DNA of 64,000 bases from a virus, in the IMG/VR virus record IMGVR_UViG_3300045988_170943, positions 96,001 through 160,000 of that record; one strand, 5' to 3'. The translations under genes were made by a program, and so were the position numbers. Below, piece after piece: positions 4,494 through 40,800 of this stretch (its first letter is position 1; the number at the start of each line of letters is the position of its first letter). Under the pieces are notes generated by a model. It made no database searches, was not told the origin of the DNA, and worked only from the letters and a program-made list of their open reading frames with translations.

Positions 4494-4846
4494 GTTTCTT
4501 CTGGTGCTAACTCTACACCACCATACAGTCAGACATCTACCCTGAAAGCATGTGACATGGGACACAGGCGCACCGACCAGGATGGCAGTATAAGGTTGAC
4601 GACTCAAGGCGCCCCTGGCGAGGCAATCTAGTGTGCCTTGTTGCGCGTTCTGCGCCACACGAAACGCGGTCACCCGCCGCCACCAGCCAACGACATGGAG
4701 GGCCGCTGGAGCACCCCACGGAAGGCACTGAAGTTACGAAAGAACCCAAGAGTAATGGTGTAGAGCACGTTTGACAACCCCTCTCTGGCGGTTAGATACT
4801 ATTCCAGGAACAGAGAACCCGTCACCCCACCCCCAAGGAGCCACCT

Positions 4847-5815
4847 ATGTGGATGCACTGGAGCGAGAAGAAGAAAAGTATGATGCCCTGTGCTGGGCCA
4901 GGCCGCTGCCAGTTCGGTGACGCCCCGCACGCGAGCACACAGGCAGAGTGTGACGCCATTGTCGCCAAGATGATGGGTAAAGAGGTGGGCGACCTTGGGG
5001 GAACCAGGAGACCCAGGAAAGACGCGGGTCTGAAGTTTGATACCACTACCCTGGAGGGGCAGCAGGCTCACGACGTCGCCGCCATGAAAGAGTACGTGGC
5101 CGCCAACAAGGCCCTGGATCGTGAAGAGTACTACCGGGGCCACGCGGGCTGGTTCTATGAAAGGGGCCTGATCCCTGGAGGTCAGAGAAATTGGCGGAAG
5201 ATGCCCACAAAGAAGATGGTCAGTGACCTCAGGGCTCTGCATGAGCAAGTGATCGCTGAAAGGGGTTATGACCGTAACGGATACGGTGATATGGCTGACA
5301 AGATGGAGGCCGCGCGGGTTGCTGTTGATGAGCACTACGAGCGGTACCGGAAACTTGACAGCCAGTATGCGGGGTGGTCGAGGTTCTTCCTCACCAACAA
5401 CACTAACGGTCACATTCATTCATCCATGGAGTGCTCTACCTGCAACCGCAATGGTAAGAGGACCCAGTTCGAGTGGCTACCTGAACTGAGCGGGCTGAAC
5501 GAGAAGCAAGCCATCCAGAAGCATGGGCCACGCCTATGCACCACGTGCTTCCCGGACGCGCCACTGGACTGGACCAACGGTGGTGAGGCAGAACCTAAGG
5601 GTAGGAAGAGGCAGGTCCCTGAGGGTGTGTGCCCAGGTTCCGGCAGCAGCGAGTACGACGAGATGACAATGAACGAGTATGAGGGGTACAGGTCGGTTCC
5701 TGGCGGCACAATGAAGGTAACGGACAGGTACGTTGACTGCCCTGAGTGCGGCAAGCAGTTCAAACTTACCGCTAAGGGTGTCATCCGTAAGCACAAGATC
5801 CCAAAGAAGAAATAA
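4847..5815 (+). CDS. zinc-ribbon protein (four CxxC pairs), unknown function
   Basis: 322 aa. Contains CSTC...CTTC and CPGSGS...CPECGKQF, plus a basic C-terminal tail (HKIPKKK). Confidence 0.5.
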   Translation: MWMHWSEKKKSMMPCAGPGRCQFGDAPHASTQAECDAIVAKMMGKEVGDLGGTRRPRKDAGLKFDTTTLEGQQAHDVAAMKEYVAANKALDREEYYRGHAGWFYERGLIPGGQRNWRKMPTKKMVSDLRALHEQVIAERGYDRNGYGDMADKMEAARVAVDEHYERYRKLDSQYAGWSRFFLTNNTNGHIHSSMECSTCNRNGKRTQFEWLPELSGLNEKQAIQKHGPRLCTTCFPDAPLDWTNGGEAEPKGRKRQVPEGVCPGSGSSEYDEMTMNEYEGYRSVPGGTMKVTDRYVDCPECGKQFKLTAKGVIRKHKIPKKK

Positions 5816-9929: not shown

Positions 9930-11132
9930 TCATTGTCTATGATACTGGTCACTTATTTCCAGTCGCCCAATGAAGTCGCTGTATGGCACTGGTCTTGGTG
10001 CGTCACCGTCGTTGTTGAACACAACCGGTTCTGTCTCGATAGTGCCGTCGGCGTGCATGCTTGCCAGGTTCTCTGCGCTGCGTGACCTGAACCGTGTCGT
10101 GTCCTCTGGTGTGTTGCTCTGGTTGACTGATGCAGGGAGAATACGGCCACCGTTCCCCTCCCCAGATACCGTGTACTTGTCCATGCCTCTCCTGTACCTG
10201 GAGGTGGCTCTTTTAGTGGATGTTTCTGGTGTGATGTCAACGAACACTGCCCTCAGGCTGTAGCCGCCCTTCTTGAGCCTACCAACCCTGGAGTCCATGG
10301 AGGAGCGTTTCGACATTGTGCCGTCCAGGATGATGTTTTTCTTCTCCCTGATAGCCCGGTCCATGATGATGCTTGAGATATGTGAGGCTTCATCGTGGGC
10401 AAGTGTGGAGCACTCCATAGGGGTGAGCCCACGCAAGGTCGGGATCATGCCCCTCTCGGCCATGATCTCTTTGATGTCGTCAGGGTTGACAGTGATGTAC
10501 TTATCGGTGTCGATGTTGAGGTACCTGGTCAGGACAGTGGTCTTGCCCGCACCACCCATACCACCTGATATGATCGCTCTCCCTTCACAGGGCGTGTCTT
10601 CGTGCTGCTTGAATACGTCATCTATGATCTGCTGCTGTAGTTTGCGGCGTTCTGGCGTGTAGACGGGCCCAGCGGATATCTTCGTGGAGTACGTGTCACT
10701 GGTCTTCAGTCCGTCACGTATCGCCTGAGAGAGGGCTCTTTCTGCGTACTGATGCCTCAGGGACATATCTAGCCCAGAGATGGCCTGGTGGCTGTCGCAT
10801 GCTTCCTGGAGTACTCGCTCGCACTCACGTCCTTGTTCCACCAAGGACATGCTCTCCCACTGCTTCCCTCGCTCTGGGCTGTTGTCTCCGGCCCCAACAG
10901 GTTTCTGTGTCGCTTTCCTCCCCTTGGAGGAGGCTGAAGCGAAGAGATCCTTACCCATGTACTCTGCCTTGATGGTGTCGATCTTCTGTTGCGCCTCCTG
11001 TGGGGTGGATGCGTACACATGGGGCTCACCATCTTTGGTCCTTGGGCACTGACGGAATTCAGCATTACACTCAACGGCTACCCCATCACTACTGCGAGCA
11101 TGCCATTTCTTCTTATTTCTGTGTCCAGTCAC
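9930..11132 (-). CDS. zeta-toxin-like P-loop kinase with an N-terminal extension of about 170 aa
   Basis: Walker A GGMGGAGKTTV, then a DGTMSKRS segment resembling the zeta/PezT kinase core. About 170 aa of unique N-terminal sequence. Confidence 0.55.
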   Translation of the reverse strand: MTGHRNKKKWHARSSDGVAVECNAEFRQCPRTKDGEPHVYASTPQEAQQKIDTIKAEYMGKDLFASASSKGRKATQKPVGAGDNSPERGKQWESMSLVEQGRECERVLQEACDSHQAISGLDMSLRHQYAERALSQAIRDGLKTSDTYSTKISAGPVYTPERRKLQQQIIDDVFKQHEDTPCEGRAIISGGMGGAGKTTVLTRYLNIDTDKYITVNPDDIKEIMAERGMIPTLRGLTPMECSTLAHDEASHISSIIMDRAIREKKNIILDGTMSKRSSMDSRVGRLKKGGYSLRAVFVDITPETSTKRATSRYRRGMDKYTVSGEGNGGRILPASVNQSNTPEDTTRFRSRSAENLASMHADGTIETEPVVFNNDGDAPRPVPYSDFIGRLEISDQYHRQ

Positions 11133-12972: not shown

Positions 12973-12987
12973 CTCCTCCTCTTGAGA

Positions 12988-13030
12988 GTGTAGACTCCTG
13001 GAATGCACCAGGGGTCTACACTTCTTTGTT
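12988..13030 (+). terminator. rho-independent terminator
   Basis: 14-bp stem gtgtagactcctgg / ccaggggtctacac (one G-U pair) with a 6-nt loop, followed by ttctttgtt. Confidence 0.65.
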
Positions 13031-13085
13031 GGGGGTTTCGCGGCCTCTTTTTGTGTGGTAGAATAGGACAATAGTAAAGGTCAAA

Positions 13086-14090
13086 GTGACTTTTACTGTG
13101 GGTCACCTTACCGTCCAAGAACACCAAGGAAGAAGCAGCGTGAAGTACTCCATACTCAGTGTAGTTACGGGAACCAGCAAGTGCACTGTCCCCTTCAAGC
13201 CATCTGACGCCACTAAGCACATCCCGCAAGGGTGTCAGTTCTGTGTCTCTGGGCAGTACGCGAACGACAGTAACCGTGTAGCACCAGAAGTGAACTGGAG
13301 GAACCTGAGGAAAGCGATCCAGTTGGCTCGCAATGGTGGGGTTGACACTGTGGTTCTTACTGGTAGGGGTGAGCCAACCTACTTCCCTGACCAGATCACT
13401 GACTACCTGAAGGTGCTTGGTCCTGAGTTTCCGCTCATCGAGTTGCAGACCAACGGGGTTCTGCTGGCCGGGGCGAGAAATGAAGACTACCTGAAGGAGT
13501 GGTACGACCTGGGTCTTACTACCATCCTCATCAGCGTAGTCAGTAACGACCCGGAAATCCTCAGGCAGAACTATATGCCGCTTTCCAGGTCATACTACGA
13601 CCTGCCAGCGCTCATCGCTAAACTCAGGGGTATCGGGTACACGGTTAGGCTGGCTTGTGTCTGCACCAAGGCGTGGATGTCCACCAGAGAGCAGGTGGCT
13701 GACTTCCTGAAGTTCGCCAAGGACAACAAGGTCGGCCAGGTCACCTTACGTCCACTGAACGACGAGTACCGGAGGGAGACCGCCCACACCTGGATCCAGA
13801 AGCACAAGATGACTGACAAGGACAAGGATAGTATCAGGGACTACCTGGATGAGGTGGGTCATAAGTTGCGGGACCTTCCAGCAATCGGGTCCATGTACGA
13901 TGTTGACGGGGTGGGTGTCCTCATGTCTCTGCCATTGACGAAGTACACGCACCATAACACTGAGGACACGGCCAGGAATCTCATCTTCTTCCCCGACGGA
14001 ACAACACGGTACGACTGGGAGTGGGAAGGGTCGGTACTTCTCCAGGGGGACAATCGTCCACTCACCTTGCAGGACGGATCCTACTGGTGA
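13086..14090 (+). CDS. radical SAM-like enzyme with a non-canonical C-x16-C-x2-C cluster motif
   Basis: N-terminal Cys spacing SKC-x16-C-QF-C instead of CxxxCxxC. Also has VLTGRGEPTYF (GGEP-like) and LQTNG motifs. The true start may be a GTG near 13138, preceded by aaggaag. Confidence 0.5.
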   Translation: MTFTVGHLTVQEHQGRSSVKYSILSVVTGTSKCTVPFKPSDATKHIPQGCQFCVSGQYANDSNRVAPEVNWRNLRKAIQLARNGGVDTVVLTGRGEPTYFPDQITDYLKVLGPEFPLIELQTNGVLLAGARNEDYLKEWYDLGLTTILISVVSNDPEILRQNYMPLSRSYYDLPALIAKLRGIGYTVRLACVCTKAWMSTREQVADFLKFAKDNKVGQVTLRPLNDEYRRETAHTWIQKHKMTDKDKDSIRDYLDEVGHKLRDLPAIGSMYDVDGVGVLMSLPLTKYTHHNTEDTARNLIFFPDGTTRYDWEWEGSVLLQGDNRPLTLQDGSYW

Positions 14091-14197
14091 GGTAATGGGC
14101 GGCACATTCTGAGAGGTGTCCACGGAACGATAGGATTCGGCCGCCTTGCACTGAGCATAAAGAAGAACGACAAGAATACATTGTGAAGGAATAGAGC

Positions 14198-15172
14198 ATG
14201 AGAATTGACTTGAAAGATGTGCTAGACCTGGATGAAGACAGCAGGGCCAAACTAGAGGAGTACAGGAGGAAGCGTGCGTTCGCCCCTGCCGCCTATGTTG
14301 AGGCTAAGACGGCAGCACTTGGCGACTATTGCAAGAACAATGACATTGACTCGCTTACCGTCCTGATCTCTGGTGGTATTGACAGTGCTGTCGTGGCTGG
14401 GATCGCCAAGGAAGTCTCCAACAGGTACGGTACTGGGGTTCACATGGTCACCATCCCTGCAACCAACAGCCGGGGGGTGACCAGGCAGGATGAGACCGTG
14501 GTACTGGCTCAAGAACTGGCTGACAACCTTGGTGAGACCCTTGATGTTCTTCCCTTTGATGGGGTTGTTGATGAGGCTGTTAGCCTGTGTGACCTGGAGG
14601 ATAGCCAGTGGGGGACGGGTCAGGCCGTCTCCTACCTGAGGACAGCGGTGGCTTACACCTATGTGACCAAGTGCTGGAGCGTGGGCGACAAGACCCTCTT
14701 GGTGGGGACAACCAACATGGATGAGGGGGCATACATTGGTTTCTTCGGCAAGGCCAGCGACGGCATGGTTGACATCCAGCCCATCAGCGACCTGCACAAG
14801 AGCGAAGTGTACCAGGTCGCCAACTACCTAGAGATCCCCGCATCTATCATCCAGGCTACACCTCAGGGGGACATGTACCATGGTGGTAAGGATGAGCAGA
14901 TTTTCGGGTGCACCTATGACTGTGTTGAGTTGTTCTACGCGACCCATATTGGCAGGTACGTGGATTCTCCTGTGAGTGAGCAGTGGAAACGAGTTGTGGA
15001 CAACATTGAGGATCTTCACCAGTACAACACACACAAGTACCTTGGTGGTTCACCTGCCGTCCACATGGACGTGATGCCATATGCGGGCACTTTTGGGTCG
15101 TGGTCCTACCAGAACATTGTAGAGTCTAGGAACATTCTTTCGTCTCACCTGACAAGCAAACAGGCACTATGA
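14198..15172 (+). CDS. nadE: NH3-dependent NAD+ synthetase
   Basis: PP-loop motif LISGGIDS. Also VGTTNMDEGAYIGFFGKASDGMVDIQPISDLHKSEVY and ATPQGD...GCTYDCVELF, which match the conserved NadE motifs GTDHAAE..GFFTKYGDGG.DI.P and KAPTADL...GVTYD. Confidence 0.75.
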   Translation: MRIDLKDVLDLDEDSRAKLEEYRRKRAFAPAAYVEAKTAALGDYCKNNDIDSLTVLISGGIDSAVVAGIAKEVSNRYGTGVHMVTIPATNSRGVTRQDETVVLAQELADNLGETLDVLPFDGVVDEAVSLCDLEDSQWGTGQAVSYLRTAVAYTYVTKCWSVGDKTLLVGTTNMDEGAYIGFFGKASDGMVDIQPISDLHKSEVYQVANYLEIPASIIQATPQGDMYHGGKDEQIFGCTYDCVELFYATHIGRYVDSPVSEQWKRVVDNIEDLHQYNTHKYLGGSPAVHMDVMPYAGTFGSWSYQNIVESRNILSSHLTSKQAL

Positions 15173-16569
15173 CAACGGGAGAGAAGGACTCACTGGGAGT
15201 ACCTGTTGCTCTGAGTGACCCAATGTTTCAGGCGTTCGCGGATACTCACCCGAGCAAGGATCTGGTTCGTTATGGGTACTACGATGACGGTGTGACCTCA
15301 CCGGACTGGGGACCTGCTACTACCCCCATCCCTGTGGGTGCTGTGTGGGCTTGTGGGGTCTCTGAGCGGCCTGCTGTGCTGGTGATGACTGGTGCCATGG
15401 ATCCGATGCACGACGGCCACGCTGAGGCCCTGGAGATAGCCAGGAGAAGGTTGGAGGGGCTGGGGGTCCAGATTGTTCACACTCACGTCATACCAGATAG
15501 TCATGTGTACGCGAGAATGAAGCGGCCTATGGGGGCTGGGAGCGATGAGGAGCGGGCCGCCAGTGTCAGGTCTTTGGGTTACGTGTGCGATGAGGACTGC
15601 ATGAGGTACCCTGGGAGACCGAACTACACGAGCATCCTCCTGCATGTCCAGCACAAGTGGCAGCAGCACGGTGTGCACCCAGTCGTATTCAACGTGGTTG
15701 GTTCAGACAACGCCCTGTTCGCTGAAGTGGCAGCAGCATACGATCCGGCCGGTTTCGGTACCGTTGTTGTGGAGACAGGCCACCAAGAAAAACCCCCCGT
15801 ACAGGAGGACGCTGGCCGGAACATCCTAGTATGCGACAGAGAAGGGCGAAAGTATGCGTCCTTGTCGTCAACCACTGTGAGAAGCGGTAACCACAGTAGT
15901 GATTTGCCTGTCATGTATATTAAAGACGACCTCGACTACTACACCACCAACAGGAAGTGCCATGACGAACTCATTAACGCACTAGAGGGCATGTTCACCT
16001 CATACGGGTACCAGGTGAAGGTCGGCCACTACCGGACACAAGTCAAAAAACTGGTCAAACAGACAGCATCCAAGCACTCCCAGGAAATAGAGAATGGTGC
16101 GATCACAGTATCCTTAGATCGACACATCCCAGCACAGGTCAGGTTCCCCATACACCGACTATTCCAGTCAGACACCCTACAGAAAATGGGGTACCTCCCA
16201 GACAGGCACCTTCAAGTACATCCAGGACAGAAGTTCATCCTGCTGGACGACGACATGGACACTGGCAACGGGATGAGATTCGTGAAACACATCATCAACA
16301 CCCAAGGTGGAGAAACCATCGGTGTTGAAACCATCTACCAGGACCCAGGGCGCGAGTTCGACGTTCTGGACGCTAGCGACGTCACCACTATTGACGGCAC
16401 AGGGCTCGTAGTCCAGTCATCTGACCTCACCATGAGCAGGATCCCCTACCTGCACACGTTCCTTGACCTGCAACGATTCTCCAGCGTGCCAGACCGTCAG
16501 AAAGAAGCGTTCACTCACCAGGTCACAAGCATTCTGAAGAGGCACAAGATCGGCACATATGAGAGGTAG
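15169..16569 (+). CDS. fusion protein: N-terminal NMNAT-like nucleotidyltransferase (HxGH) plus C-terminal type I phosphoribosyltransferase
   Basis: GAMDPMHDGH matches the G-x-x-DP-x-H-x-GH nucleotidyltransferase motif. KFILLDDDMDTGNGM matches the type I PRTase PRPP loop. The ATG overlaps the nadE stop (ATGA). Confidence 0.55.
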   Translation: MTTGEKDSLGVPVALSDPMFQAFADTHPSKDLVRYGYYDDGVTSPDWGPATTPIPVGAVWACGVSERPAVLVMTGAMDPMHDGHAEALEIARRRLEGLGVQIVHTHVIPDSHVYARMKRPMGAGSDEERAASVRSLGYVCDEDCMRYPGRPNYTSILLHVQHKWQQHGVHPVVFNVVGSDNALFAEVAAAYDPAGFGTVVVETGHQEKPPVQEDAGRNILVCDREGRKYASLSSTTVRSGNHSSDLPVMYIKDDLDYYTTNRKCHDELINALEGMFTSYGYQVKVGHYRTQVKKLVKQTASKHSQEIENGAITVSLDRHIPAQVRFPIHRLFQSDTLQKMGYLPDRHLQVHPGQKFILLDDDMDTGNGMRFVKHIINTQGGETIGVETIYQDPGREFDVLDASDVTTIDGTGLVVQSSDLTMSRIPYLHTFLDLQRFSSVPDRQKEAFTHQVTSILKRHKIGTYER

Positions 16570-25429: not shown

Positions 25430-26962
25430 CTAGGTTGGAGATCCCCTAGAATCTAGGGTTTCTCTCACCATCATCAGCGTCGCCTCGGTTTTTATTTCCG
25501 AGGTACCGGTGTGCCCCTGGATTCTACTCAGGGCAGTGACCGGTTTCGACTGCCGCGTAACAGCCGAACTTCGCATTTCCTTTCTCTGACGAAGCAGAGA
25601 ACGCATTCTCTCTCGTGTTCGAGATGAAGGAGATGCCGCACGCAGAGCAATCTCTCTGGATGCTGAGACATCCCGGTTCAACTCAAAACCACAGGTAGTG
25701 CAGGTGCCAACTCGGGTAGATGTGTTGTTTCTGGTTCTATCTCCGCAGCGAGAACAGGTTCTAGAGGTGTCTTTAGCACTCACCTTGGTTACTTTAAGGC
25801 CGTAGCGCTTAGCCGTATTCTCAATGCGACTCTGAATCTCCGCATGAGGCCAACGACCTCCCTGAGCATCCAGCCAGGACAGGTTCTCTAAAGAAACGTG
25901 AGCGTCGTTCCGATCTGCGATCTCTACTACCTGGCTGGCGATGCACTGACTGATCTCGCGCTTGATACGAGTGGCCTTAGCACTGACTCGCCTGGCTTCT
26001 TCTCTGAGAACTTGGGCGTGCTGATCTCGATTGTGCTTCTCGCAGAGGTTCGCTCGCTCGTACAGATGAGCGGCTAGATCGCGGCGTTTCTGTTCCTTCT
26101 TAACTAAGGCTCCGAGTCGTCTCTTATAGTTGGCGTGATATGGGGCAGACCTGTGCTTACTCTTAGGATCGATGACTGTAGCGACGAACGGCTCGACCTT
26201 ACCCAGATCAACACCCGTGATTATCTTGGTCTGGCTGGCATCTATTTCGTGCTCAATAGTGATGTCGAAGACGACCTGTCCCTTGTTGTTCAGGCGGATA
26301 GTTGGACGACAGATCTTACCTTCACTGAATCTCTCGCTGTTCTCTGGTAGCCTGAGATAGAGTCTGGTGAGACCATAAGTAGGCGTCTTAACCTGAACAG
26401 TGACACTTAGAGGATCGTTGTCATCTCTTGATGCTTTGGGCGCGAAGTGAGTGTCACAGACCGCCAGGTTCAGTTTAGCGCTCACGCCTGGTAGAGACGC
26501 TTTCCTTTCGCCCTTGATGTGATAACGTCTCAGGTGAGAGCAGACCATGCCACTGGTTGGTTGCGGGGCATCAGGATAGGTGTTCTTGTAATGAGATAGT
26601 ATCTGGTCCGGTTTTGTCGTGCTCGGGTGAGTACTCATTACTTGGAACAGGCCAACACTCATGGCGTACAGTTCCAGAGCACTCACTACGTTTGAGACCA
26701 GCATCTCGTTCATATTGTGCTTCTGAAACGAGAAGCCGTAGCGACTCAGCCTCTTCCTGCCCCAGGAGTTCAGAGAACCAGTCGGCCTGTCACCTTGCAG
26801 AGCCTTGATCGCTAAATCATGAAACTCACGGCTGGCAAGCACCTCTCGTTCTGACTCGGCCATCCAGGCGACCATCTGAGCCAGATCGCGTTCAACCTGC
26901 TCCACGTCAACCCCGCCGTCAGTGGTGAACCTGTGCCTGGTTACTGCGTCGTAGTACTTCAC
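25430..26962 (-). CDS. tnpB: TnpB-like (IS605 OrfB family) RuvC + zinc-ribbon nuclease, solo copy
   Basis: RuvC-I ITGVDLGKV, RuvC-II VSLENLS, zinc ribbon CSRCG...CTTCG, RuvC-III NRDVSASREIALRA. GTG start. An Arg-rich C-terminal tail of about 80 aa. No tnpA nearby. Confidence 0.8.
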   Translation of the reverse strand: MKYYDAVTRHRFTTDGGVDVEQVERDLAQMVAWMAESEREVLASREFHDLAIKALQGDRPTGSLNSWGRKRLSRYGFSFQKHNMNEMLVSNVVSALELYAMSVGLFQVMSTHPSTTKPDQILSHYKNTYPDAPQPTSGMVCSHLRRYHIKGERKASLPGVSAKLNLAVCDTHFAPKASRDDNDPLSVTVQVKTPTYGLTRLYLRLPENSERFSEGKICRPTIRLNNKGQVVFDITIEHEIDASQTKIITGVDLGKVEPFVATVIDPKSKHRSAPYHANYKRRLGALVKKEQKRRDLAAHLYERANLCEKHNRDQHAQVLREEARRVSAKATRIKREISQCIASQVVEIADRNDAHVSLENLSWLDAQGGRWPHAEIQSRIENTAKRYGLKVTKVSAKDTSRTCSRCGDRTRNNTSTRVGTCTTCGFELNRDVSASREIALRAASPSSRTRERMRSLLRQRKEMRSSAVTRQSKPVTALSRIQGHTGTSEIKTEATLMMVRETLDSRGSPT

Positions 26963-31120: not shown

Positions 31121-31759
31121 ATGAAGATCACAAGCATTATCAAGAACGTAACGTGGAGGTTCGTCAGGAAGCATCTGCTGGCGAACTACAGGCGCGGCTT
31201 TGCCACAAACTCCTCATCCTCACACTCCTTCGTCTACCTGAAGAGCACTCCCGAGGATGCCTATAGGGAAGAGTACTTCGACCCAGCCGGAGAGTACTAT
31301 GGCTGGGATGACTTCAAACTCTCTTCCATCATGGGCAAGTTGTTCTACGTCCTATCACAGAAGGTGCATGGATGGGAGTCCATGGACGAGGATGAGAAGC
31401 AGATGATTCGTGACGAGTTCCCTGAGGCCGATGACGGCATGATTCAAGCTGCCTCTGAGAGCGAGGTTGATCACGAGTCGTTCGGTGTCGTCACTCCAGA
31501 GATTGCTCGCAACCCGTACACCGTCGTGTTTGGCGGAAATGACAATGACGGCTATAGTTATGAGCGCGCCAAGGTTGTTTCCAGCGGCTTGGTTGACTGG
31601 ACCAAGACCGAGCCTGAGTGGGGGGATACAGAGAGGGTGGGTAGCGATCCGAAATCCCCTCTGGTGGCTGAGATGATCCAGGGTCTCAGGGAGCAGGGCT
31701 GGTCTGATGAGAGAATTGAGTACGAACTTCGCATCGATCTGAGCGAGGATGACCGATGA
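31121..31759 (+). CDS. hypothetical protein, translationally coupled to the downstream radical SAM gene
   Basis: 212 aa. Its stop overlaps the next start (ATGA at 31756). Confidence 0.5.
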   Translation: MKITSIIKNVTWRFVRKHLLANYRRGFATNSSSSHSFVYLKSTPEDAYREEYFDPAGEYYGWDDFKLSSIMGKLFYVLSQKVHGWESMDEDEKQMIRDEFPEADDGMIQAASESEVDHESFGVVTPEIARNPYTVVFGGNDNDGYSYERAKVVSSGLVDWTKTEPEWGDTERVGSDPKSPLVAEMIQGLREQGWSDERIEYELRIDLSEDDR

Positions 31760-32637
31760 GGCGTTACGGTGTTCGTTTCGATAGGAACGCTGTCTCGTTC
31801 TTTGACAGGGTTGATGGCACGAAGATCAGGTTCGCTGTCGGCAGGTATGAGAAGGCTGGCAAGCCCGAACTAGCCGACGTAAAAATTAGTGACTACTGCC
31901 CCATTGGGTGTGAATTTTGCTATATGGACTCTACTATTTTTGGTAAGCATGGGTCCGTAGAAAACATTGAGGCCATTGCTCGTGAGATGGGCAAGGCTAA
32001 GGTGTGGGAGGTCGCCCTTGGTGGCGGTGAGACCACCTCACATCCTGAGTTCGTGAGGATTCTAAAGATTTTTCGGGACAATGGTGTGGTTCCGAATTTC
32101 ACGACCAAGTTGCCTGCTGCTGTGCGCAAGTTCTGGCCTGAGATTAAGGACCTGATTGGTGGCTTCGCGTATAGCGCTGAGACTCCTGCTCAGATTCGCT
32201 CTGCCGCCAAGTTGCTGCGGGATGTTCCAGCAGGTAAGGCATCGTTGCACTATGTGATGGGTCTTGGGGACCGTGAGTCGTTCATGGAGTACATGAGAGC
32301 CGCAGACGAGGTAGGCTGGCGAGTCACGCTCCTGGGGTACAAGACCTCTGGTCGAGGTAAGGATGTGGTTCCATATCCTTATGACTGGTGGATCGATGCA
32401 GTGGACGAGTTGATCGCTGAGGGCAGGTGCCCGTCTTTCTCGATTGACACTCCGCTGGCCGATCAGTTCGCTGGAAGGATGCCGGTTGAGGGCTTCATGT
32501 ACCACCGTCATGAGGGTAAGTTCTCCGTCTTTGTTGATGCGGTGGAGATGAAGATGGGTGCCTCCTCCTTTGAGGACAAGGATTCGCTAGTTCCATTCGC
32601 TCAGGGGACGTGGCTGAGGGAGTTCAGGAAGTTCTGA
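31756..32637 (+). CDS. radical SAM enzyme (canonical CxxxCxxC), unknown function
   Basis: DYCPIGCEFCY (C-x3-C-x2-C) and ALGGGETTSHPEF (GGE motif). Confidence 0.7.
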   Translation: MRRYGVRFDRNAVSFFDRVDGTKIRFAVGRYEKAGKPELADVKISDYCPIGCEFCYMDSTIFGKHGSVENIEAIAREMGKAKVWEVALGGGETTSHPEFVRILKIFRDNGVVPNFTTKLPAAVRKFWPEIKDLIGGFAYSAETPAQIRSAAKLLRDVPAGKASLHYVMGLGDRESFMEYMRAADEVGWRVTLLGYKTSGRGKDVVPYPYDWWIDAVDELIAEGRCPSFSIDTPLADQFAGRMPVEGFMYHRHEGKFSVFVDAVEMKMGASSFEDKDSLVPFAQGTWLREFRKF

Positions 32638-33024: not shown

Positions 33025-34668
33025 ATGATGAGGTCATTCAGGAAGGCATGTCTTGCAGGAGCACTGACAATGGCCGCCTGTGGTGCTGCTGTTCCGGCTG
33101 TCGCTGCTGACAATGACGCTATTGTCCCGGATGCTTCACGGCAGGCCACTCTGGACATCCACAAGTTGAGTGGCACTGAGTCCACTACTCGTGCTGACGG
33201 TACGGCTCTCGCCCCTGAGGAGGTTGCCAAGTATGGTAAGCCCATGGGTGGGGTCGTCTTTGACGTGTACAAGGTGTCTGGTATTGACGTCTCGACCAAT
33301 GAGGGGCTGAAGGTCGCTGAGAAGATCCATGAGCGCAAGGTCACTGCTGCTGACGTGACGGCCGGGAAGATCTCGGTTGATGGTCAGGACTACGCTCTGG
33401 TCAAGGAGGCCCAGTCGGTGACAACTGGCGAGGACGGCTCTGGTCAGGGAACCTATGGGCTGGGTGTCTACGTCGTGGCCGAGAACCTGGCAAACTCCAC
33501 CCCGACCGTTGACGGTGCTGCTGTGGGTAAGGACAAGGTTACCCCGAGTGCCCCTTTCCTTGTCTCTCTGCCGATGACGAACACGAATGGTCGCTCTGAG
33601 TGGATGTATGACGTGGATGTCTACCCGAAGAACCAGGTTGACGAAATCACCAAGAGCGTCAGTGACGGCAAGGTCGGAACACAGAACCAGGACGGCTACC
33701 GGGTTGGCGAGAAGATCACCTACAGCCTGAACTCGACTGTCCTGGTGGGCGACAAGAATGGTGACGGCACGGTTGACGGGGCCGATTTCGGTGGCGTCTA
33801 TCAGATCACTGACACCCTGGACGCCAACCTGTCTTTTGAGAGCGAGACGGTCACTCTGACGAGTGCCGCTGGCGTGTCTGAGGTGCTGACCAAGGGCGCT
33901 GACTACACCGTGGCTAGTGCTGGCAACCAGGTGACTGTGTCCATGACTGAGCAGGGGCTCGGAAAGTTGACTAAGGTCTCTGGTGGCAGCGTGACCACTG
34001 ACCTTGTGGCCCGTGTCGCTACTATGCCAGCCAATGGTATTGTTGAGAACCAGGCCGCTTTCGTACCAAACAACACGTGGAAGACCAGCCACCCCGAGCC
34101 AGGCATCTCCTCTAACAAGGTCACCTCCAAGTATGGTGACATCGTGATCCACAAGACTAACAAGTATGGTGACAATCTTTCTGGTGCCGTGTTCAAGGTG
34201 TTCCGCGCAACCAATGGGACCACCTGTGATGTTGAGGCGCTTAAGGGTGACCCGGTTGCTACCTCCAGTCCGACTGATGCTGCTGGTCTGACCAAGTTGA
34301 GCGGACTCCAGTTGTCCAACTTCTATGACGGTGCCGATCAGGCCAACCTTCACTCCTACTGCCTGGTTGAGTCCACCGCCCCGGACGGGTACACGCTTCT
34401 GGCTAAGCCGGTCAAGTTCGACCTGACTGCTGCTGGTTCCGTGACTGACCTGTCTGCCGCACTGGGTGATGGTGTTGACGCCAACACTGAGGATCTGACC
34501 GGCCGCAACGTCCACATCACTAACGTCAAGAAGGGTGAGTTGCCTCTGACTGGTGCCCAGGGCGTGGCTCTGCTGGCAACCATCTCCATCATCCTCGCTG
34601 GTGTCGGTACTGGCCTGGTGATCTCCAGCCGCAAGAAGGCAAAGGCGGCCGAGGTCGCCACTGACTGA
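33025..34668 (+). CDS. sortase-dependent major pilin (backbone fimbrial subunit)
   Basis: Signal peptide; pilin motif DVDVYPKNQ; E-box YCLVESTAPDGY; CnaB-like segments; C-terminal LPLTG plus a hydrophobic helix plus SSRKKAK. Confidence 0.85.
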   Translation: MMRSFRKACLAGALTMAACGAAVPAVAADNDAIVPDASRQATLDIHKLSGTESTTRADGTALAPEEVAKYGKPMGGVVFDVYKVSGIDVSTNEGLKVAEKIHERKVTAADVTAGKISVDGQDYALVKEAQSVTTGEDGSGQGTYGLGVYVVAENLANSTPTVDGAAVGKDKVTPSAPFLVSLPMTNTNGRSEWMYDVDVYPKNQVDEITKSVSDGKVGTQNQDGYRVGEKITYSLNSTVLVGDKNGDGTVDGADFGGVYQITDTLDANLSFESETVTLTSAAGVSEVLTKGADYTVASAGNQVTVSMTEQGLGKLTKVSGGSVTTDLVARVATMPANGIVENQAAFVPNNTWKTSHPEPGISSNKVTSKYGDIVIHKTNKYGDNLSGAVFKVFRATNGTTCDVEALKGDPVATSSPTDAAGLTKLSGLQLSNFYDGADQANLHSYCLVESTAPDGYTLLAKPVKFDLTAAGSVTDLSAALGDGVDANTEDLTGRNVHITNVKKGELPLTGAQGVALLATISIILAGVGTGLVISSRKKAKAAEVATD

Positions 34669-34828: not shown

Positions 34829-37800
34829 TTGAACAGGATTACTGAGACCTTGAAGAGCCTCGGAGGCATGAAGACCGGGCGGGCACTGTCAACAGCAGTG
34901 GTTGTCGCCCTGGTCGTTGTCGCTGGCTTTGTGGTTGGCCCTTTGAGGGCTGCTGACCTTACCGAGTTGCTGCTGTTTGACCCAAGTACGGGGGCGGTTA
35001 CTGGTCTCACTGAGGAAGGCAAGACCCAGTTCAAGGATGCTGTGGATCTGAGTATTCCTGGCGAGATCAATGGGGTCAAGGTGACTGCCATTGGGGACAG
35101 TGCTTTCAAGGCGATGAAGTTCAAGAAGGTGACCCTGCCTGAGAGCGTGACCACCTTGGGTGAGTACGCTTTCTATGGAAACGGCATCAGTGAGTTGTCT
35201 GCCCCAGGTGTGACGACTGTCAAGGCTCATGCGTTGCAGTTGAATGCTTTGAAGTCGTTCACCTCGAAGACTCTCTCTGAGATTGGTGACAGTGCTTTCG
35301 CCCAGAACGCCTTGACTAGCGTGGATCTGGCTCAGGCACCTGCAACCGTTATTGGTGAGTCGGCGTTCAAGGACAACAAGATCTCTTCCCTGTCGCTGCC
35401 GTCTGGTGTCGCCACGATCAAGGCTGGTGCCTTCTCCAGCAACTCCCTGACCTCTGTGACCCTGCCTGAGAGCGTGCAGGAGGTTAGTGACAAGGCGTTC
35501 TCCAGCAACTCTGTCCAGGAGGTCACTGTTGGTACGAACGTCTCCTCATGGGGCTCTGAGGTGTTCTCTGGGGCTGGACGTTACGTCAAGGTTGTCACTG
35601 AGAACCCGAACATCATCACTCAGGGGTACTCTGATGGTTTTGGGCAGGTCGTCAACCCTGTCACGGTTCGCCTGCACCTGAAGGATGCCGCCACCGGGCA
35701 GGAGATTGCCTCTACTGTCACTATGGGGCAGGATCTCACCAAGCAGGGTGAGGTCTTTGGTAGGGGCGCTCAGGCCAGGGTCACTGCACCTGAGATTGAC
35801 GGCTACAAGGCCAACAATGCTTTCGTTGACTTCACTCCAGATAGCGACCCTTACGATGTTGATGTGGCGTACACCAAGGGTGGCGGCAACCCTGTCATTA
35901 CGGTGGCCGGTAAGTCCAAGTCGTTCAAGCAGGGGCAGCAGGTCACCAAGGCAGACCTGTTGAAGGATGTCTCCGCTACCGATGTCAACGGGCAGAACAT
36001 CACGTCCAGTATCACGGTTGAGCCTGAGACGCTGGACACCAGCACTCCTGGCACCAAGGATGTCTTCTACACTGTGACCGACTCTCAGGGCAACCAGACC
36101 ATCAAGAAGGTTGTTGTCGCTGTTGGCACTGACTTCGGTGAGATCGAGATGTGCAACGGCTGGAAGGTCAAGGACTTCGCGTTTGACGGGACAGCAGTCA
36201 TTGGTCTGAGCAGTTCCGGTCAGGCCAAGGTTCGTTCTGGGAACACCAAGGTCTGTTTCCCCAGTGTCACTAAGGACGGCAGGACCGTTGAGTCTATCGG
36301 CAGTGGCGACACTCCGTCATACCAGTATTTGACGAACGGTATCACCGCTGTTGAAGACTGGGGGAGCGCAACTAGCATCAAGAAGGGTTTCTTCTCTGAC
36401 CTGAGCCACCTTGAGAGCCTTCCTGAGACCTGGGGAAACATCACCAGCATCGGCAAGAGCGCTTTTGAGGGCGCCAGCAATCTGACATCTATCCCTAAGA
36501 CATGGGGTAAGGTGACATCTCTTGGTGACGGGGCCTTCAACCGTGCTGGACTTACCAAGATCCCTGAACAGTGGCCTGCCGGGATGACCTATCTCCCTAA
36601 GGATGTCTTCAAGAGCAACAAGATCAAGTCTGTTCCCGACTCCTGGGGTGACATCAAGGACATTGGTAACGGTGCTTTCGGGTACCAGAACCTCACTGCC
36701 GATGACACGTTCAAGGTCCCGAACTGGACTGGTATCACCAGTATCGGTGATCAGGCTTTCGCTAGTACCTCATACAGTCGGGCAAAGATGGATCTCCCGG
36801 CCTCTTTCGAGACGGTCAAGTCTATTGGCTGGGCTGCGTTCGAGTACGCCAAGGGTGTTGAGGACAAGATCACTGACTGGGGTGATGTTGAGAACATTGG
36901 AGCCAACGCCTTCTACCGCTCTGACCTGACATCTCTGCCTGACTCCTGGGGCAAGGTGAACAAACTTGGGCAAGAGGCTTTTGCTGAGACCAGAATCTCC
37001 AAGATCCCAGACAACTGGGGTGGCATCACGACCATTCCGAACGGACTCTTCTCCAATGTCTACGATTTGACAACCATTCCGTCTTCCTGGGGTAATGTCA
37101 CCAAGATTGATGACTACGCTTTCAGCAAGACGAGGATCACTGAGATTCCTGACTCCTGGGGTGAGGTCACCTGGATCGGTAACGGGGCACTGAACACGTC
37201 TGACGGCAGCAACTCCAACAACGGCACCATCACCAAGGTTCCTCCTTCTTGGGGTAAGGTGAACGTCATCCGTAGTTACGCCATCAACTCGGCAGTGTCC
37301 TCCTACCCGAGCGACTGGTCTGGTATCCGCCTGGTTGAGGAGTGGGCTCTGCGAAGCAAGAACCAGAAGTCAGCCCAGATCGTGACCGCCTCTGACGCCC
37401 TGCTGTCTCGTGAGCGCCCCAAGCGTGAGGGTGGGTACACTGGTGACACCAACCAGAAGGTGTACATGTACCCTGCTGACGGTACATTCCCAGACAACAT
37501 GCCTGCCGACACGGACAACATCTTCGCTGGCCCAACGTTCGCTAAGGTCCGTTACGTTGATGAGAACGGGAACGACATTCGCCCTGCTGTCAGCACGAAG
37601 ATGTACCCTCGTGGTACCGTGATTAAGCCCGTCAGCGTGTACGGTTTCGAGACCCCTGGTGACTACACTGTTCCTGTGTCCACCAGCGCTGACGAGAAGG
37701 AGATCGTCTTCACCTACAAGCGCAGTGGGCCTGTGGAGCAGAAGACCAGTATCAGTATCTCCAAGACCTACACTGACTCGAAGACTGGTGTGACCACTGA

Positions 37801-40800
37801 CACTGCCCCGACCGTGAATGCTGGGGCTGAGGAACTTGCTGTCACAGTCAAGATTGGTAACAGTGGCGCTAACGCTGAGGACATCCCTGAGGACACGACT
37901 ATCCGTATCCCTATCTCTGACGCCATGACCTTCAGTGGTATTGGTCAGGCTGACAGGGTGAAGTCTGCGAAGGTTGTTGGTAGCGAGATTGTCATGACCT
38001 TGAAGGCTCTCCCTAAGGGCACTGACTTCTCTGTTCCGGTCAGGTTCAGGTTCAACCGGTACAAGACTGCCGCCAACACCGCATACCCGATGAGTGCGAC
38101 CATGGTGTACCCGGACGACACTGCCAGGGGGCAGAGCAACACTGTTGACATCTACTCCCGGTATGAGAACCCTGAGATGCGGAAGGGGACCGTGGAGAAC
38201 GGCAACGAGACGAACATGAAGTGGGATGGTTACCTTGTTGACGACTATACCGCTAACGCTGACGGGTCTGTTGCTTCCGGGGACGCGGCGAAGAACTACC
38301 TCACCTACACCTTCTATGTAACTAACCTGCACCGTAACATTGGGGCATGGGAGGTCACCGACACTCTGCCCACCTACAAGAAGGCTGACGGCAGTGAAGC
38401 GAAGGCGGTCTTTGATCCTGCACTCAACCCTGGGTGGTCGCTCTCTGACGACGGGACCACAGCCGTCTACCGTGGGAGTGAGGCCATCTTGGACACTGAC
38501 TCCAAGTTGCTTCCTGTTACCCTGAGGCTGCGTTACCCTGACGCTGCCAATGGGGCCAACATCAAGAACTCTGCTGACATCCGGCTCACACCCCACAACA
38601 AGGGTGCCGCTGAGAAGGACCTGCACGCTGGCAACAGCATCACCAACTCTTTCGTGAAGTTCCCCGAGTACAAGAGCACTGGTGACGACTACGGGTCTGA
38701 CAAGTACGCCAGCGGACCCGAGTGTGTTCGTGCCCGCGAGTGCTTCTTCTCCGACACGACACGTGGACGGAACATGGAGCAGAAATGGAACTTGGTGGCC
38801 TACTCCAAGGGTGAGTCCACACCAAGGTTCACTGACCATGACCTGGATCCGAGGCTTCGCTACACCGCTCTAACCAACATCTCTGCCCACGGGAACCACA
38901 GGGGCAAGTCACACCCTGACACCCTTGATAGCGCTGACGTGATGGTGGTTGATCAGGAGGGCGCAACCCTGTGGACGGCCAAGATGCCTGCCGCCGGGTC
39001 CAGGCTGGACATCCCTGAAGAGTACACGACCGGCCAGGTGAGTATCATCATCAAGGCGAACAAGAAGATGAAGAACTCCACTGCTGCTGTCATTGTCCAC
39101 ACTGAGTTGCGTGACAAGGCCAGCAAGGTTGTCACGGATGACCCGACAACAGCGATCATGCGTAACCAGGTCACTACCGAGATGGATGGTGGCTACAAGG
39201 TGACCCGTGAGGCCAACCTGAGAGTGATCCCTGAGTCCAGGAAGATCACTGCCACCAAGACCTCATCTTTCGCCTCCCCAACGGTCACAGGCGACACTGG
39301 CTCCTACAATGTTGGTTTCAAGACCGACGAGGGATTCGGGGCAACCATTGAGAACTTCCGCATGGTTGACCTACTCCCCGCTGGCCTGTCCGTGGTGGAC
39401 TACACGATGTCCAACACCTTCGAGCAGTCACCTGGCGCAAGAGTTGAGGCGGTATCCAACTACAATGGCACTGGTCGTACTGCTGTCATCTGGACTGCTG
39501 ACTCTGTTCCAGCATCCGCTGTGACGAACAACACGATGGCTGTGGGTGCTATCACTGCCAAGGTCTCTGGTGAGGCCGCCACGGGGCGCATCACCAACGA
39601 CGTGTACCTGACCTCCACTACTGAGGATATGGTTTACGGCAACAAGGTTGATAACCCTCCTGCCGGTAACGGAACCTGGTCCAAGGCTGAGGTGAGCGAC
39701 CCTATGCTGGCTGCTGAGGACCTGTCCACGGTCAAGGAGATCCGTAACCTTGGTGGGGCCTGGTCCAAGGACATCACCACCTATGCTGGTGAGCAGTTCG
39801 AGTACCGGCTTGCTGCGTCCAACATGACGAACACGAACCGGACGAACCCCGTGTTCTACGACTTCTTCCCGCACGTTGGAGACACCTCCGTCACTGGTGA
39901 CCCCAGGCTTTCGGAGTTCGCCAACACATGGGACCTGACCCGCCAGCCTGTCCTGCCTGACGGGTGGCGTATCCAGTACCTCAACACTGACGACAACCCG
40001 CCTGTTGTGACGCAGAGCAACCGCGATTCTGTTCTGGAGTCGCTGAACTGGTCGGACACTCCTGCCGCTAACACGAAGGGGATCCGGGTTTCTGGTCCTG
40101 TTATTGAGGCGAGGACTACCGCTGAGGTGATCCTTCCGATGAAGGCACCTGAGGAGCATGTTGAGGGTATTGCTCCGCTGCCGTACAAGAACCTGTACAA
40201 GGTGGCGCGGAACACGTTCATGTATGATGATGACCAGTCACCTTTCCTGCTGGAGCCTGCTGGTGTCGTCAACCGCATGGACGCCCCTGGTGCCGACATC
40301 AAGTTCAAGAAGGTGTCAAACTTCCCTGGCGGGCCTCTTGCTGGAGCCAAGTTCGTTCTCAAGGACGACAAGGGCAAGACGATTGGTTCTGCTACCTCAG
40401 GTAAGGACGGTATGGTGAAGTTCGTCAACAAGCGAATCAAGCCAGGATACACCATCACTGAGATTCACGCCCCTAAGGGGTACAAGGCCACCTCCAAGCC
40501 GATTACGATTGGTGCCGACAAGTTCACCAACATGGTTGGACGTACCTATGTGATCGATCTGGGTGAGATGTCCAACTCAAAGATCTGGGCTCCGATCAAG
40601 CCGATGACTGGTGAGGTTCGTTTCGCAAAGATCGGTAAGGGCGAGATCCCCCTTCCTGGGGCAACCTTCCAGTTGAAGGGTACATCTGGTGCCACCAGTG
40701 GGCTCACCTACACTGCTGTGTCGAACAGCAAGGGCACGGTCTCCTTCAAGAACGTTCCTCTGGGCCGTTACTCGGTCAGTGAGGTGTCTGCTCCAGGTCG

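Follow-up and report, generated by a model that had tools for sequence, protein, structure and literature searches.

The window analysed here, the whole 64,000-nucleotide stretch, holds a NAD synthetase (NadE) homologue followed by a protein that joins an adenylyltransferase-like domain to a phosphoribosyltransferase (PRTase)-like domain. This raises the question of what product such genes make on a virus-derived DNA. Depletion of NAD+ ranks among the major modes of bacterial immunity, and the initial annotation had read the two genes as a unit leading from a base plus PRPP through a mononucleotide and a dinucleotide to NAD+. We found that the unit has three members: an upstream radical-SAM (rSAM) gene is strictly co-conserved with the other two, and other lineages have a 2OG-Fe(II) oxygenase instead. 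To our knowledge, a radical-SAM or 2OG-dependent step is required by no known NAD route, so the plain scheme, a Preiss-Handler pathway without an oxidation step, leaves a strictly conserved gene unexplained. The three-gene operon most likely restores NAD+ along a non-standard pathway in which a conserved oxidising enzyme takes part.

The operon and its carrier

The coordinates of the operon, its genes and their motifs are given in Table 1.

Table 1. Features of the three-gene operon (positions are those of the window)
Feature	Position	Strand	Residues	Description
Terminator-like hairpin pair	12986..13048	+		Consensus scan; 16-bp stem, then 7-bp stem
Three-gene operon	13140..16569			rSAM enzyme, NadE, NMNAT/type-I PRTase fusion
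rSAM enzyme	13140..14090	+	316 aa	First gene of the triad; from GTG 13140
rSAM cluster cysteines			aa 14-35	Within KCTVPFKPSDATKHIPQGCQFC
NadE homologue	14198..15172	+	324 aa	ATG start; single-domain (NH3-type) NAD synthetase
NadE PP-loop	14369-14386		aa 58-63	SGGIDS
NadE motif			aa 170-195	GTTNMDEGAYIGFFGKASDGMVDIQP
NadE motif			aa 238-241	CTYD
nadE stop/fusion start	15169-15172			ATGA
Fusion ORF	15169..16569	+	466 aa	ATG start
Fusion, N-terminal half	15169..15903	+	aa 1-245	NMN/NaMN-adenylyltransferase-like Rossmann domain
HxGH motif	15391-15420		aa 75-84	GAMDPMHDGH; PMHDGH at aa 79-84
Further N-domain motif	15700-15720		aa 178-184	GSDNALF
ISSTxxR-type motif	15862-15882		aa 232-238	LSSTTVR
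Fusion, C-terminal half	15904..16569	+	aa 246-466	Divergent type-I phosphoribosyltransferase-like domain
PRPP loop	16234-16275		aa 356-369	FILLDDDMDTGNGM

The nadE and fusion ORFs stand as initially annotated, and the start codon of the fusion does lie within the nadE stop. This overlap, the hairpins upstream and the convergent genes downstream of the fusion gene together support a single operon. Each hairpin is followed by a T-rich tail, and the pair, located just 5' of the rSAM gene, probably delimits the transcription unit on its 5' side. The program-made ORF of the rSAM gene begins at GTG 13086.

The module had been placed in a low-GC block. This was incorrect: its GC content is 0.545 compared to 0.544 for the whole window (0.520 at 1-30 kb and 0.565 at 30-64 kb). 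A colinearity comparison showed that both halves of the window belong to one element. Over ~46 kb the window runs colinear with a contig of 394 kb that IMG/VR classes as viral, and the metagenome contigs noted in this context have lengths of 400-409 kb. The carrier of the operon is a phage-like element of roughly 0.4 Mb; within the 64-kb window itself no phage hallmark genes were seen. GmrSD-like proteins are encoded on the same element as the triad.

The NadE homologue

The assignment of the second gene to NadE held up. The ATP-pyrophosphatase motif SGGxDS and the further motifs of Table 1 are present, and the protein passed the cut-offs of both Pfam NAD_synthase PF02540 (101.6 bits, cut-off 21, E 4.9e-29) and TIGR00552 (101.7, cut-off 63.65). 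The nearest solved structure was 3fiu, the NadE of Francisella (E 1.3e-20). With the closest equivalog model, NF010587, the score was 111 bits, below the cut-off of 255, which points to a divergent subfamily whose substrate might differ from NaAD or NaMN. We also observed a C-terminal extension common to the NadEs of other cassettes, and an identity of 33% over the full length with the NadE of the Leptospira cassette. Judged by its sequence, then, this NadE is a member of a divergent, cassette-specific subfamily, and its predicted function is the amidation of NaAD or NaMN with ATP and NH3.

The NMNAT/type-I PRTase fusion

Conservation in the fusion was assessed in 52 relatives that are 20-56% identical. 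The two motifs reported initially, HxGH and the PRPP loop, are both present, and the motif residues are invariant or nearly invariant at these levels of identity, beyond what is expected by chance.

In the N-terminal half, a conserved leader (aa ~15-45) precedes the Rossmann domain. H81 and H84 of the HxGH motif are invariant in the 52 relatives. Two more motifs, GSDNALF and the C-terminal LSSTTVR, had been missed in the initial annotation; in the latter S234 is invariant, and S233 and R238 are kept in at least 90% of the relatives. The window fusion scored 17.8 bits against PF01467, under the cut-off of 21, and relatives of it pass this model (e.g. P0045 at 45 bits). The TIGR00482 score in one relative was 49 bits compared to the cut-off of 112. 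For the family as a whole, the N-domain is significantly homologous to NMNATs of solved structure and shares their fold. The family consensus VDPWE aligns with VDTWE of human NMNAT1 in the mononucleotide-binding DxWE segment. The window clade, unlike the family consensus and the eukaryotic NMNATs, has CDEDCMR at that position. A fold search of BFVD returned only single-domain NMNAT-like viral proteins.

The C-terminal half matched type-I PRTases only and has the type-I PRT fold, in agreement with the initial call of type I rather than type II. The match is a divergent one: 21.6 bits against PF00156, under the gathering threshold of 26.3. Residues D317, R330, D361, D362, D401, D404, G412 and Y427 are invariant in the 52 relatives, with D360, G366, R424 and P426 kept in at least 90% of them. 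All nicotinate, nicotinamide and quinolinate PRTases known to us are of type II, and we know of no precedent for a type-I PRTase acting on nicotinate. The linkage to NadE and a distribution complementary to that of PncB suggest nicotinate as the base that the C-domain would use.

The radical-SAM enzyme and its 2OG-Fe(II) oxygenase counterpart

The first gene qualifies as a member of the radical-SAM superfamily by the three-cysteine motif and by a score over the cut-off of PF04055. The unusual Cx16CxxC spacing of its cysteines is due to a 13-residue insert; relatives show the canonical CxxxCxxC. The scores against more specific models were low, with 30.7 for the MoaA equivalog (cut-off 284) and, for a relative, 24.9 for the viperin equivalog (cut-off 180). 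The closest folds were those of MoaA, viperin and BlsE, which act on nucleotides or nucleosides, besides one lipid enzyme. A second radical-SAM gene of the window was considered as a homologue and dismissed, as the alignment was limited to the cluster motif.

In the lineages where the 2OG-Fe(II) oxygenase replaces the rSAM, the gene order is nadE-2OG-fusion, with stop and start codons that overlap. A tblastn search of the window found no homologue of this oxygenase. Among cultured organisms, Streptomyces, Variovorax and Leptospira carry the 2OG version, and we take these to be aerobes. The sources of the rSAM version, in a small sample, were gut and oral metagenomes as well as MAGs of Clostridia or Bacilli.

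Conservation and distribution of the cassette

The order rSAM-NadE-fusion was observed in all 56 scorable metagenome loci and in all 11 scorable viral loci with an rSAM at least 55% identical. When the fusions were clustered at 60% identity, 17 of the 19 resulting lineages had NadE within 5 kb of the fusion, and an HMM-detected rSAM or 2OG oxygenase was likewise present in 17 of 19. As for the exceptions, a different rSAM is adjacent in L057, and two uncharacterised ORFs separate NadE from the fusion in L053. The near-universal pairing with NadE argues for a deamidated fusion product, since a nicotinamide route needs no NadE.

A Pfam summary of neighbouring genes revealed PncA, PncB and NadE beside distant homologues of the rSAM. 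Such relatives stand in canonical clusters: PncB-NadE-rSAM-PncA (L033), PncB-NadE-PncA with the rSAM relative 6 kb away (L040), and PncB with NadE and an rSAM relative (L046). An all-against-all BLAST of the neighbours of these distant homologues showed nothing recurrent beyond near-identical loci. At the fusion loci, phmmer detected no PncB or PncA homologues in the examined DNA of any of the 91 loci, and the window has no NAPRTase/NampT homologue. PncB was thus found beside the distant rSAMs but not in this DNA of the fusion loci, and the fusion probably does the work of both PncB and NadD in a Preiss-Handler-like route with deamidated intermediates.

Genes with a relation to NAD or ADP-ribose, such as NUDIX and ADP-ribosylglycohydrolase genes, recur at the cassettes, and a TIR-domain gene and an abortive-infection gene adjoin the Leptospira cassette. 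Two candidate relations of other ORFs were rejected: the 212-aa ORF at 31121-31759 has no homology to the 218-aa ORF that the L003 clade carries between rSAM and NadE, and the assignment of the latter as an Asp/Glu racemase rested on a marginal match (E about 1e-3).

In 50,697 deposited phage genomes, DNA and protein searches found neither the module nor the window fusion nor two other family members. The rSAM query had a single match there, 24% identical, in a 735-kb metagenomic phage, and this set of genomes offers no cultured phage with the cassette. The cassette is not specific to phages, since cultured Streptomyces, Variovorax and Leptospira (including Leptospira interrogans) also carry it on their replicons. 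Relatives of the window clade were not found in 185,579 GTDB species-representative genomes, within the limits of a pattern scan; a GTDB scan with a five-sequence alignment gave three MAG contigs only. Clustering at 50% identity gives 511 representatives of the fusion family at E<=1e-10. Members that we looked up were labelled 'hypothetical protein', save two automatic JGI labels, and the family appears uncharacterised. Literature searches turned up neither an NMNAT-type-I-PRT fusion nor a cassette of NadE, an oxidase and an NMNAT, and the fusion architecture was not found in a survey of phage NAD genes (PMC9503650).

A proposed route to NAD+

We propose the following route. The C-domain of the fusion would join a carboxylated pyridine base, likeliest nicotinate, to PRPP to form NaMN, in place of the canonical type-II PncB. 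The N-domain would then adenylylate the mononucleotide (the NadD/NMNAT step), and NadE would amidate the carboxylate, either on NaAD, as in the classical order, or at an earlier point on NaMN, ahead of adenylylation, in the manner of the Francisella 'NMN synthetase'. The net result would be the conversion of nicotinate, PRPP, ATP and ammonia to NAD+ without the PncB, NadD and NadE of the host. A fourth activity, that of the rSAM enzyme or, in aerobe-associated lineages, of the 2OG-Fe(II) oxygenase, may carry out oxidative or radical chemistry, either on the base or on one of the nucleotide intermediates. The element would benefit by sustaining or restoring the NAD+ pool during its replication, including under attack by host NADase immunity. 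We consider it somewhat likelier to be right than wrong that the fusion and NadE make NAD+ on a phage-like element with the rSAM as an integral fourth activity. The presence of the cassette on cellular replicons weakens a specifically anti-defence role, and the module is a candidate for counter-defence.

Relation to known systems

Preiss-Handler clusters pncB-nadD-nadE have been described from in silico work on gut jumbo phages (PMC11662467), so the pathway logic proposed here is less novel than the enzyme set. In both cases the deamidated-route genes are clustered on a large phage-like element, the set ends in NadE, and a host-independent supply of NAD+ is the presumed benefit. In our locus, however, one polypeptide with a eukaryote-like NMNAT and a type-I PRT-like domain stands where those clusters have a type-II PncB and a bacterial-type NadD, and a radical-SAM or 2OG oxygenase gene is obligatory.

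The gene set had been said to match neither NARP1 nor NARP2, and this was upheld, also with respect to the later NARP3. NARP2 (NampT + NMNAT; NadV/NatV of Vibrio phage KVP40) counters NAD+-depleting defence (10.1101/2024.02.11.579819). In it, as in the proposed route, phosphoribosyl transfer comes first and the NMNAT reaction second; in the window an NMNAT-like domain would supply the latter. The NampT of NARP2 is of type II, acts on nicotinamide and needs no NadE, while the PRT of the window is of type I, fused to the NMNAT and always paired with NadE, a pairing that implies a deamidated route. NARP1 (Adps + Namat) and NARP3 (PnuC + NadR; PMC13464706) are also phage-borne means of NAD+ restoration, but with different chemistry: the module lacks a Prs-like Adps, a NampT-like Namat, PnuC and a NadR-like kinase domain.

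Among cellular systems, Francisella tularensis uses NadE as an NMN synthetase, with NadD replaced by the non-NadD NMNAT NadM, according to PMC3376133, which cites Sorci 2009. The combination of a single-domain NadE homologue with a non-NadD NMNAT is similar; the Francisella route has separate proteins, and neither a type-I PRT nor an oxidising partner. NadM-Nudix and NadR (NMNAT-RNK) are likewise fusions of an NMNAT with a second NAD-salvage activity, while the partner here is a type-I PRT-like domain. From viperin- and MoaA-type enzymes the rSAM of the triad differs both in scores far under the two cut-offs and in its context of NadE, NMNAT-PRT and PncA/PncB.

Alternative explanations

The conserved oxidising enzyme could also mean that the product is not NAD+ itself. 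The triad may make a dinucleotide with a modified pyridine or another carboxamide base. In this case the rSAM or 2OG enzyme would have to oxidise, dehydrate or hydroxylate the base or a ribose, and the PRT, adenylyltransferase and amidation steps would build the rest. Such a product could be a NADase-resistant cofactor, could inhibit NAD-consuming immune enzymes or act as their decoy, or could serve as a signal. We regard this as a possibility of clearly minor, yet appreciable, probability. It would account for an oxidising partner that is strictly co-conserved and translationally coupled, for two non-homologous enzymes filling the same slot, and for the contrast between 2OG carriers that are presumably aerobes and the gut, oral, Clostridia and Bacilli sources of the small rSAM sample. 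The nearest folds of the rSAM, a PRT domain not of the nicotinate/nicotinamide type, and a cassette-specific NadE with its own C-terminal extension point the same way. On the other hand, the rSAM relatives in otherwise canonical PncB-NadE-PncA clusters tie this enzyme to ordinary nicotinate salvage, the motifs of NMNAT and NadE are conventional, the rSAM and the 2OG oxygenase may catalyse different reactions, and we know of no modified NAD of this kind. Rather doubtful, in our estimate, is a broader version: an oxidation by the anaerobe-associated rSAM or by the 2OG enzyme of aerobes, followed by a new type-I PRTase-NMNAT, would yield either a modified NAD-type dinucleotide or NAD+ from a precursor closed to ordinary salvage, by which giant phages would escape or blunt NAD-directed immunity.

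PRT-fold regulators without catalytic activity exist, and PurR was among the structural matches of the C-domain. This domain might then be a PurR/PyrR-like regulatory or channelling domain that binds PRPP or nucleotides, leaving the fusion to work as an NMNAT on host-made NaMN or NMN together with NadE. We find this unlikely: the acidic pair and the TG within the PRPP loop are, together with D317, R330, D401, D404, R424 and Y427, invariant or kept in at least 90% of relatives, and the distribution complementary to PncB fits a catalytic replacement. The TIR-domain and abortive-infection genes beside the Leptospira cassette, as well as the GmrSD-like proteins of the same element, could suggest a defence or offence module, where a viperin-like rSAM or an oxygenase makes a toxic nucleotide analogue from a substrate supplied by NadE and the fusion. 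Still, PADLOC had no match for any of the three proteins, the rSAM is far under the viperin cut-off, and the linkage is to NAD-salvage enzymes rather than to nucleotide kinases, which makes such a module very improbable. A last alternative, raised in the initial annotation, is a common housekeeping locus for NAD on a bacterial chromosome; the window does hold Gram-positive surface-protein genes (LPXTG pilin, sortase, a 2622-aa adhesin). We give this explanation next to no credence, given the colinearity with the viral contig, the lack of a Pfam match for 40 of the 44 other ORFs surveyed, the result of the GTDB pattern scan within its limits, and a module without PncB and a typical NadD.

Significance

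Three phage NAD+-reconstitution pathways have been described, and the triad would be a fourth enzyme set. With the fusion family, a type-I PRTase would for the first time be proposed for the synthesis of pyridine nucleotides, and its conserved rSAM or 2OG partner points to a NAD-related step outside the textbook routes. With the cassette present in cultured Streptomyces, Variovorax and Leptospira interrogans, these predictions are directly testable.

Domain composition of NadE and the fusion protein

Both open reading frames proposed in the initial annotation, nadE and the gene of the NMNAT-PRT fusion, were found on the + strand where it had placed them, with ATGA at 15169-15172 putting the fusion start within the nadE stop. 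The quoted motifs were also present: SGGIDS and both NadE blocks in the first ORF, GAMDPMHDGH and FILLDDDMDTGNGM in the second, which carries in addition GSDNALF and LSSTTVR, unmentioned earlier. The NadE product scored 101.6 bits for PF02540 (curated threshold 21) and 101.7 for TIGR00552 (curated threshold 63.65). No glutaminase domain was found in this ORF, and the nearest solved structure was that of Francisella NadE (3fiu, E 1.3e-20).

Taken alone, the window fusion fell below the Pfam thresholds for Pribosyltran (21.6 vs 26.3) and CTP_transf_like (17.8 vs 21), and the domain assignments therefore required further evidence. Word-indexed searching across 5.8 billion proteins returned only 27 clusters, 35-99% identical; when 1.84 billion representatives were searched exhaustively with a profile, 878 proteins matched at E<=1e-3, of which 511 reached E<=1e-10. 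Since most of the profile matches were full-length (440-600 aa), the two-domain architecture represents a broad family. Members whose names were checked either had none or bore the label 'hypothetical protein', 'cytidylyltransferase' or 'nicotinic acid mononucleotide adenylyltransferase'.

Fifty-two members, which share only 20-56% identity with the window protein, were aligned. The invariant columns were G75, H81 and H84 (HxGH), G178 and D180 (GxDN..F) and S234 (SSTxxR) in the N-half, and D317, R330, D361, D362, D401, D404, G412 and Y427 in the C-half; D360, G366, R424 and P426 were kept in at least 90% of the members. The 52-sequence profile matched solved eukaryote-type NMNATs (9rpk, E 3.2e-24; human NMNAT1, 2e-19; NMNAT3, 4e-18), which speaks against the alternative, named in the initial annotation, of a PPAT or FADS N-terminal domain. 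Bacterial NadD was matched at 3e-6, and the C-half of the profile matched HPRT and APRT at about 1e-3. These comparisons identify an NMNAT-like N-half, followed by a C-half that is type-I PRT-like but divergent. As a caveat, in the window clade CDEDCMR occupies the site of VDPWE in the family consensus and in eukaryotic NMNATs.

A three-gene unit with two kinds of oxidising enzyme

A radical-SAM gene (rSAM) lies upstream of nadE, preceded by two terminator-like hairpins, and convergent genes lie downstream of the fusion. The order rSAM-NadE-fusion was also observed around fusion homologues 88% and 47% identical. The rSAM family exceeds the window clade (624 matches), and downstream of members sharing about 50% identity with the window rSAM, NadE and a protein of the fusion family were seen once more. 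With HMMs built here, the order was found in 11 of 11 IMG/VR loci with rSAM at least 55% identical and in all 56 metagenome loci having at least 3 kb downstream. As judged from gene order, the unit has three genes, rSAM included. For MoaA and for viperin, the rSAM protein fell far short of the curated cut-offs.

In other fusion lineages rSAM was absent, and a P4H-like 2OG-Fe(II) oxygenase was located between NadE and the fusion instead. These oxygenases are mutually homologous, have the HxD...H motif intact, and their stop and start codons often overlap the neighbours; the window has no homologue of them. Carriers include the Streptomyces sp. DK15 chromosome, a contig of 59 kb that also has RNR, sortase and pilin genes, and further phage-like contigs. 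Among cultured bacteria, this version was found in Streptomyces on a 497-kb plasmid, in Variovorax on replicons of ~800 kb and in Leptospira interrogans on p1.

The 91 loci, when pooled, formed 19 fusion lineages at 60% identity: NadE and 2OG in eight, NadE and rSAM in seven, NadE only in two and 2OG only in two. One 'NadE only' lineage had a different, convergent rSAM adjoining the fusion, the other had two uncharacterised ORFs between NadE and the fusion, and one locus among the '2OG only' lineages was truncated upstream. What is conserved is therefore a core of NadE, the fusion and one oxidising enzyme, which belongs to either of two unrelated kinds. The genera of the cultured 2OG-version carriers (Streptomyces, Variovorax, Leptospira) are aerobes, and the named sources of the rSAM version were human gut metagenomes and Clostridia or Bacilli MAGs; in this small sample, the split looks like the familiar pairing of O2-independent and O2-dependent enzymes. 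NadE or the fusion was broken into two ORFs in metagenome contigs L002 (3284-4245), L015 (6779-7854) and L026 (9847-11178), by either frameshift, assembly error or cassette decay.

Features of the window and of compared loci (L numbers; metagenome or viral contigs and replicons of cultured bacteria)
Feature	Position	Strand	Remarks
Zeta_toxin/AAA_33 kinase-domain ORF	9930-11132	-	400 aa; E 9e-18; ~2 kb upstream of module
Two terminator-like hairpins	12986-13048		precede rSAM
rSAM gene	start probably GTG 13140	+	316 aa; start aligned with 78%-identical orthologue
nadE	14198..15172	+	324 aa
Fusion gene	15169..16569	+	466 aa
TnpB-like ORF	25430-26962	-	Cas12f1-like_TNB domain; PHROG 'transposase'
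212-aa ORF	31121-31759	+	no family match; stop overlapped by second radical-SAM start
Second radical-SAM gene	31756-32637	+	CPIGCEFC motif; weak PADLOC pVip match, E 1e-5
LPXTG pilin	33025-34668	+
Surface protein	34829-42697	+	2622 aa; seven SpaA repeats, BspA-type LRRs
Sortase-like ORF	probably 42709-43656	+
TnpB-like ORF	55194-56768	+	Cas12f1-like_TNB domain; PHROG 'transposase'
L029	8001-9557		rSAM, then isochorismatase-like ORF (phmmer)
L033	5107-9489		PncB, glutamine-type NadE, rSAM, PncA-like (phmmer)
L040	1-1900 and 7977-8930		PncB, NadE, PncA; rSAM 6 kb away (phmmer)
L046	23-8846		PncB, NadE, rSAM (phmmer)
L140, Leptospira interrogans sv. Bataviae p1	NZ_CP043881.1 84666-100045		NUDIX-nadE-2OG-fusion

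The element carrying the cassette

IMG/VR contig 3300008363_000089 (394,300 bp) carries counterparts of the fusion (87% identity) and of rSAM (94% identity), and the far-end gene of the window (61000-62589) was 95% identical to another gene of that contig. The spacing to this far-end gene was ~46.6 kb on the contig vs 45.2 kb in the window; the whole window therefore belongs to one element of ~0.4 Mb. The triad was also found on metagenome contigs of 400,504 and 408,666 bp. The element is listed as viral in IMG/VR and is likely a jumbo phage. No capsid or terminase gene was seen in the element DNA examined, no tRNA was found in the window, and deposited phage genomes gave no match. The 44 other window ORFs surveyed had no structural hallmark gene and few PHROG matches, and only four matched Pfam: Sortase, Nuc_deoxyri_tr2 (nucleoside 2-deoxyribosyltransferase-like, E 1.7e-18), a second Radical_SAM and D12 adenine methyltransferase. 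The second radical-SAM protein is unrelated to the module rSAM outside the cluster motif. The earlier remark on low GC did not hold, with values of 0.545 for the module and 0.544 for the window.

Pilus and surface-adhesin genes are unusual on a putative jumbo phage; sortase and SpaA genes were also seen on the related element L006. TnpB-like ORFs occur at other positions in relatives of the element (L001, L002). In PHROG, the kinase-domain ORF matched domains from large polyvalent proteins labelled 'minor head'. GmrSD-like (type IV restriction) domains were found in the window (51224-52297, +), L006 (20345-21184) and L011 (3209-3739), all cassette-carrying elements.

Predicted pathway and relation to known NAD+ routes

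Homologues of rSAM 29-42% identical to the window protein were observed on IMG/VR contigs without the fusion, where a Pfam summary of three neighbours per side gave NAPRTase, NAD_synthase with CN_hydrolase, and Isochorismatase. In several phage lineages, this rSAM family appears to be linked with the salvage of nicotinate (L029, L033, L040 and L046 in the table). Single-sequence phmmer queries, of limited sensitivity, detected no PncB or PncA homologue in the DNA available for the 91 fusion loci. Given PncB clusters on one side and PncB-free fusion loci on the other, the rSAM family and NadE accompany either canonical PncB or the fusion, which is what one would expect if the PRT domain replaces PncB and the NMNAT domain replaces NadD. 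The PRT domain would then take the PncB step and the NMNAT domain the NadD step, with NadE acting in the order NaMN -> NMN -> NAD or NaMN -> NaAD -> NAD.

The near-universal pairing with NadE argues for a deamidated fusion product, because a nicotinamide route (NARP2-like) would not require NadE. Francisella NadE is an NMN synthetase in a setting where a non-NadD NMNAT replaces NadD (PMC3376133). Since the window NadE is closest to this enzyme among solved structures, the order could be NaMN -> NMN -> NAD. NUDIX and ADP-ribosylglycohydrolase genes accompany some loci and point to NAD/ADPR metabolism. GNAT, IMPase-like and Asp/Glu-racemase-like genes recurred near cassettes without explanation. 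In Variovorax L141, an Asp/Glu-racemase-family gene (4577-5218) lies directly upstream of nadE, and in the L003 clade a 218-aa ORF between rSAM and NadE (L003 8405-9061) marginally matched the ACTELS segment of that family (E about 1e-3).

The initial annotation had the set matching neither NARP1 (Adps + Namat) nor NARP2 (NampT + NMNAT), as their published enzyme sets bear out (10.1101/2024.02.11.579819); NARP3 (PnuC + NadR; PMC13464706) also differs from rSAM/2OG, NadE and fusion. A survey of virus NAD/ADPR genes gives NadV, NadM and NadR as the only phage NAD-synthesis enzymes (PMC9503650). From sequence, pncB-nadD-nadE clusters were described in gut jumbo phages (PMC11662467), and a phage-borne deamidated route therefore has a precedent.

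None of the three triad proteins matched a PADLOC defence model. A counter-defence role of the cassette is plausible, but its presence on cellular replicons as well weakens this reading. On the Leptospira replicon (L140), the opposite strand beyond the cassette encodes an HNH endonuclease, a protein with a TIR domain, one named 'phage abortive infection' and an integrase. The NAD-building cassette therefore adjoins a possible NADase immune gene, a neighbour that can be read either way.

To our knowledge, Preiss-Handler salvage has no step requiring a radical-SAM or 2OG-dependent enzyme, and NARP1-3 have none either. As a conjecture, the oxidising enzyme may release nicotinate from a modified pyridine, modify the ribose of an intermediate, or turn the product into something other than NAD+. 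That the cassette involves a modified product or an unusual precursor we consider rather improbable. Overall, the observations of the initial annotation were confirmed, and its interpretation was borne out in part. In its predicted functions, the cassette is one of MGE-borne NAD+ synthesis. The NMNAT-type-I-PRT family underlying it is uncharacterised; the novelty lies in the set of enzymes and in its oxidising partner, and the cassette includes a conserved oxidation step that known NAD routes leave unexplained.
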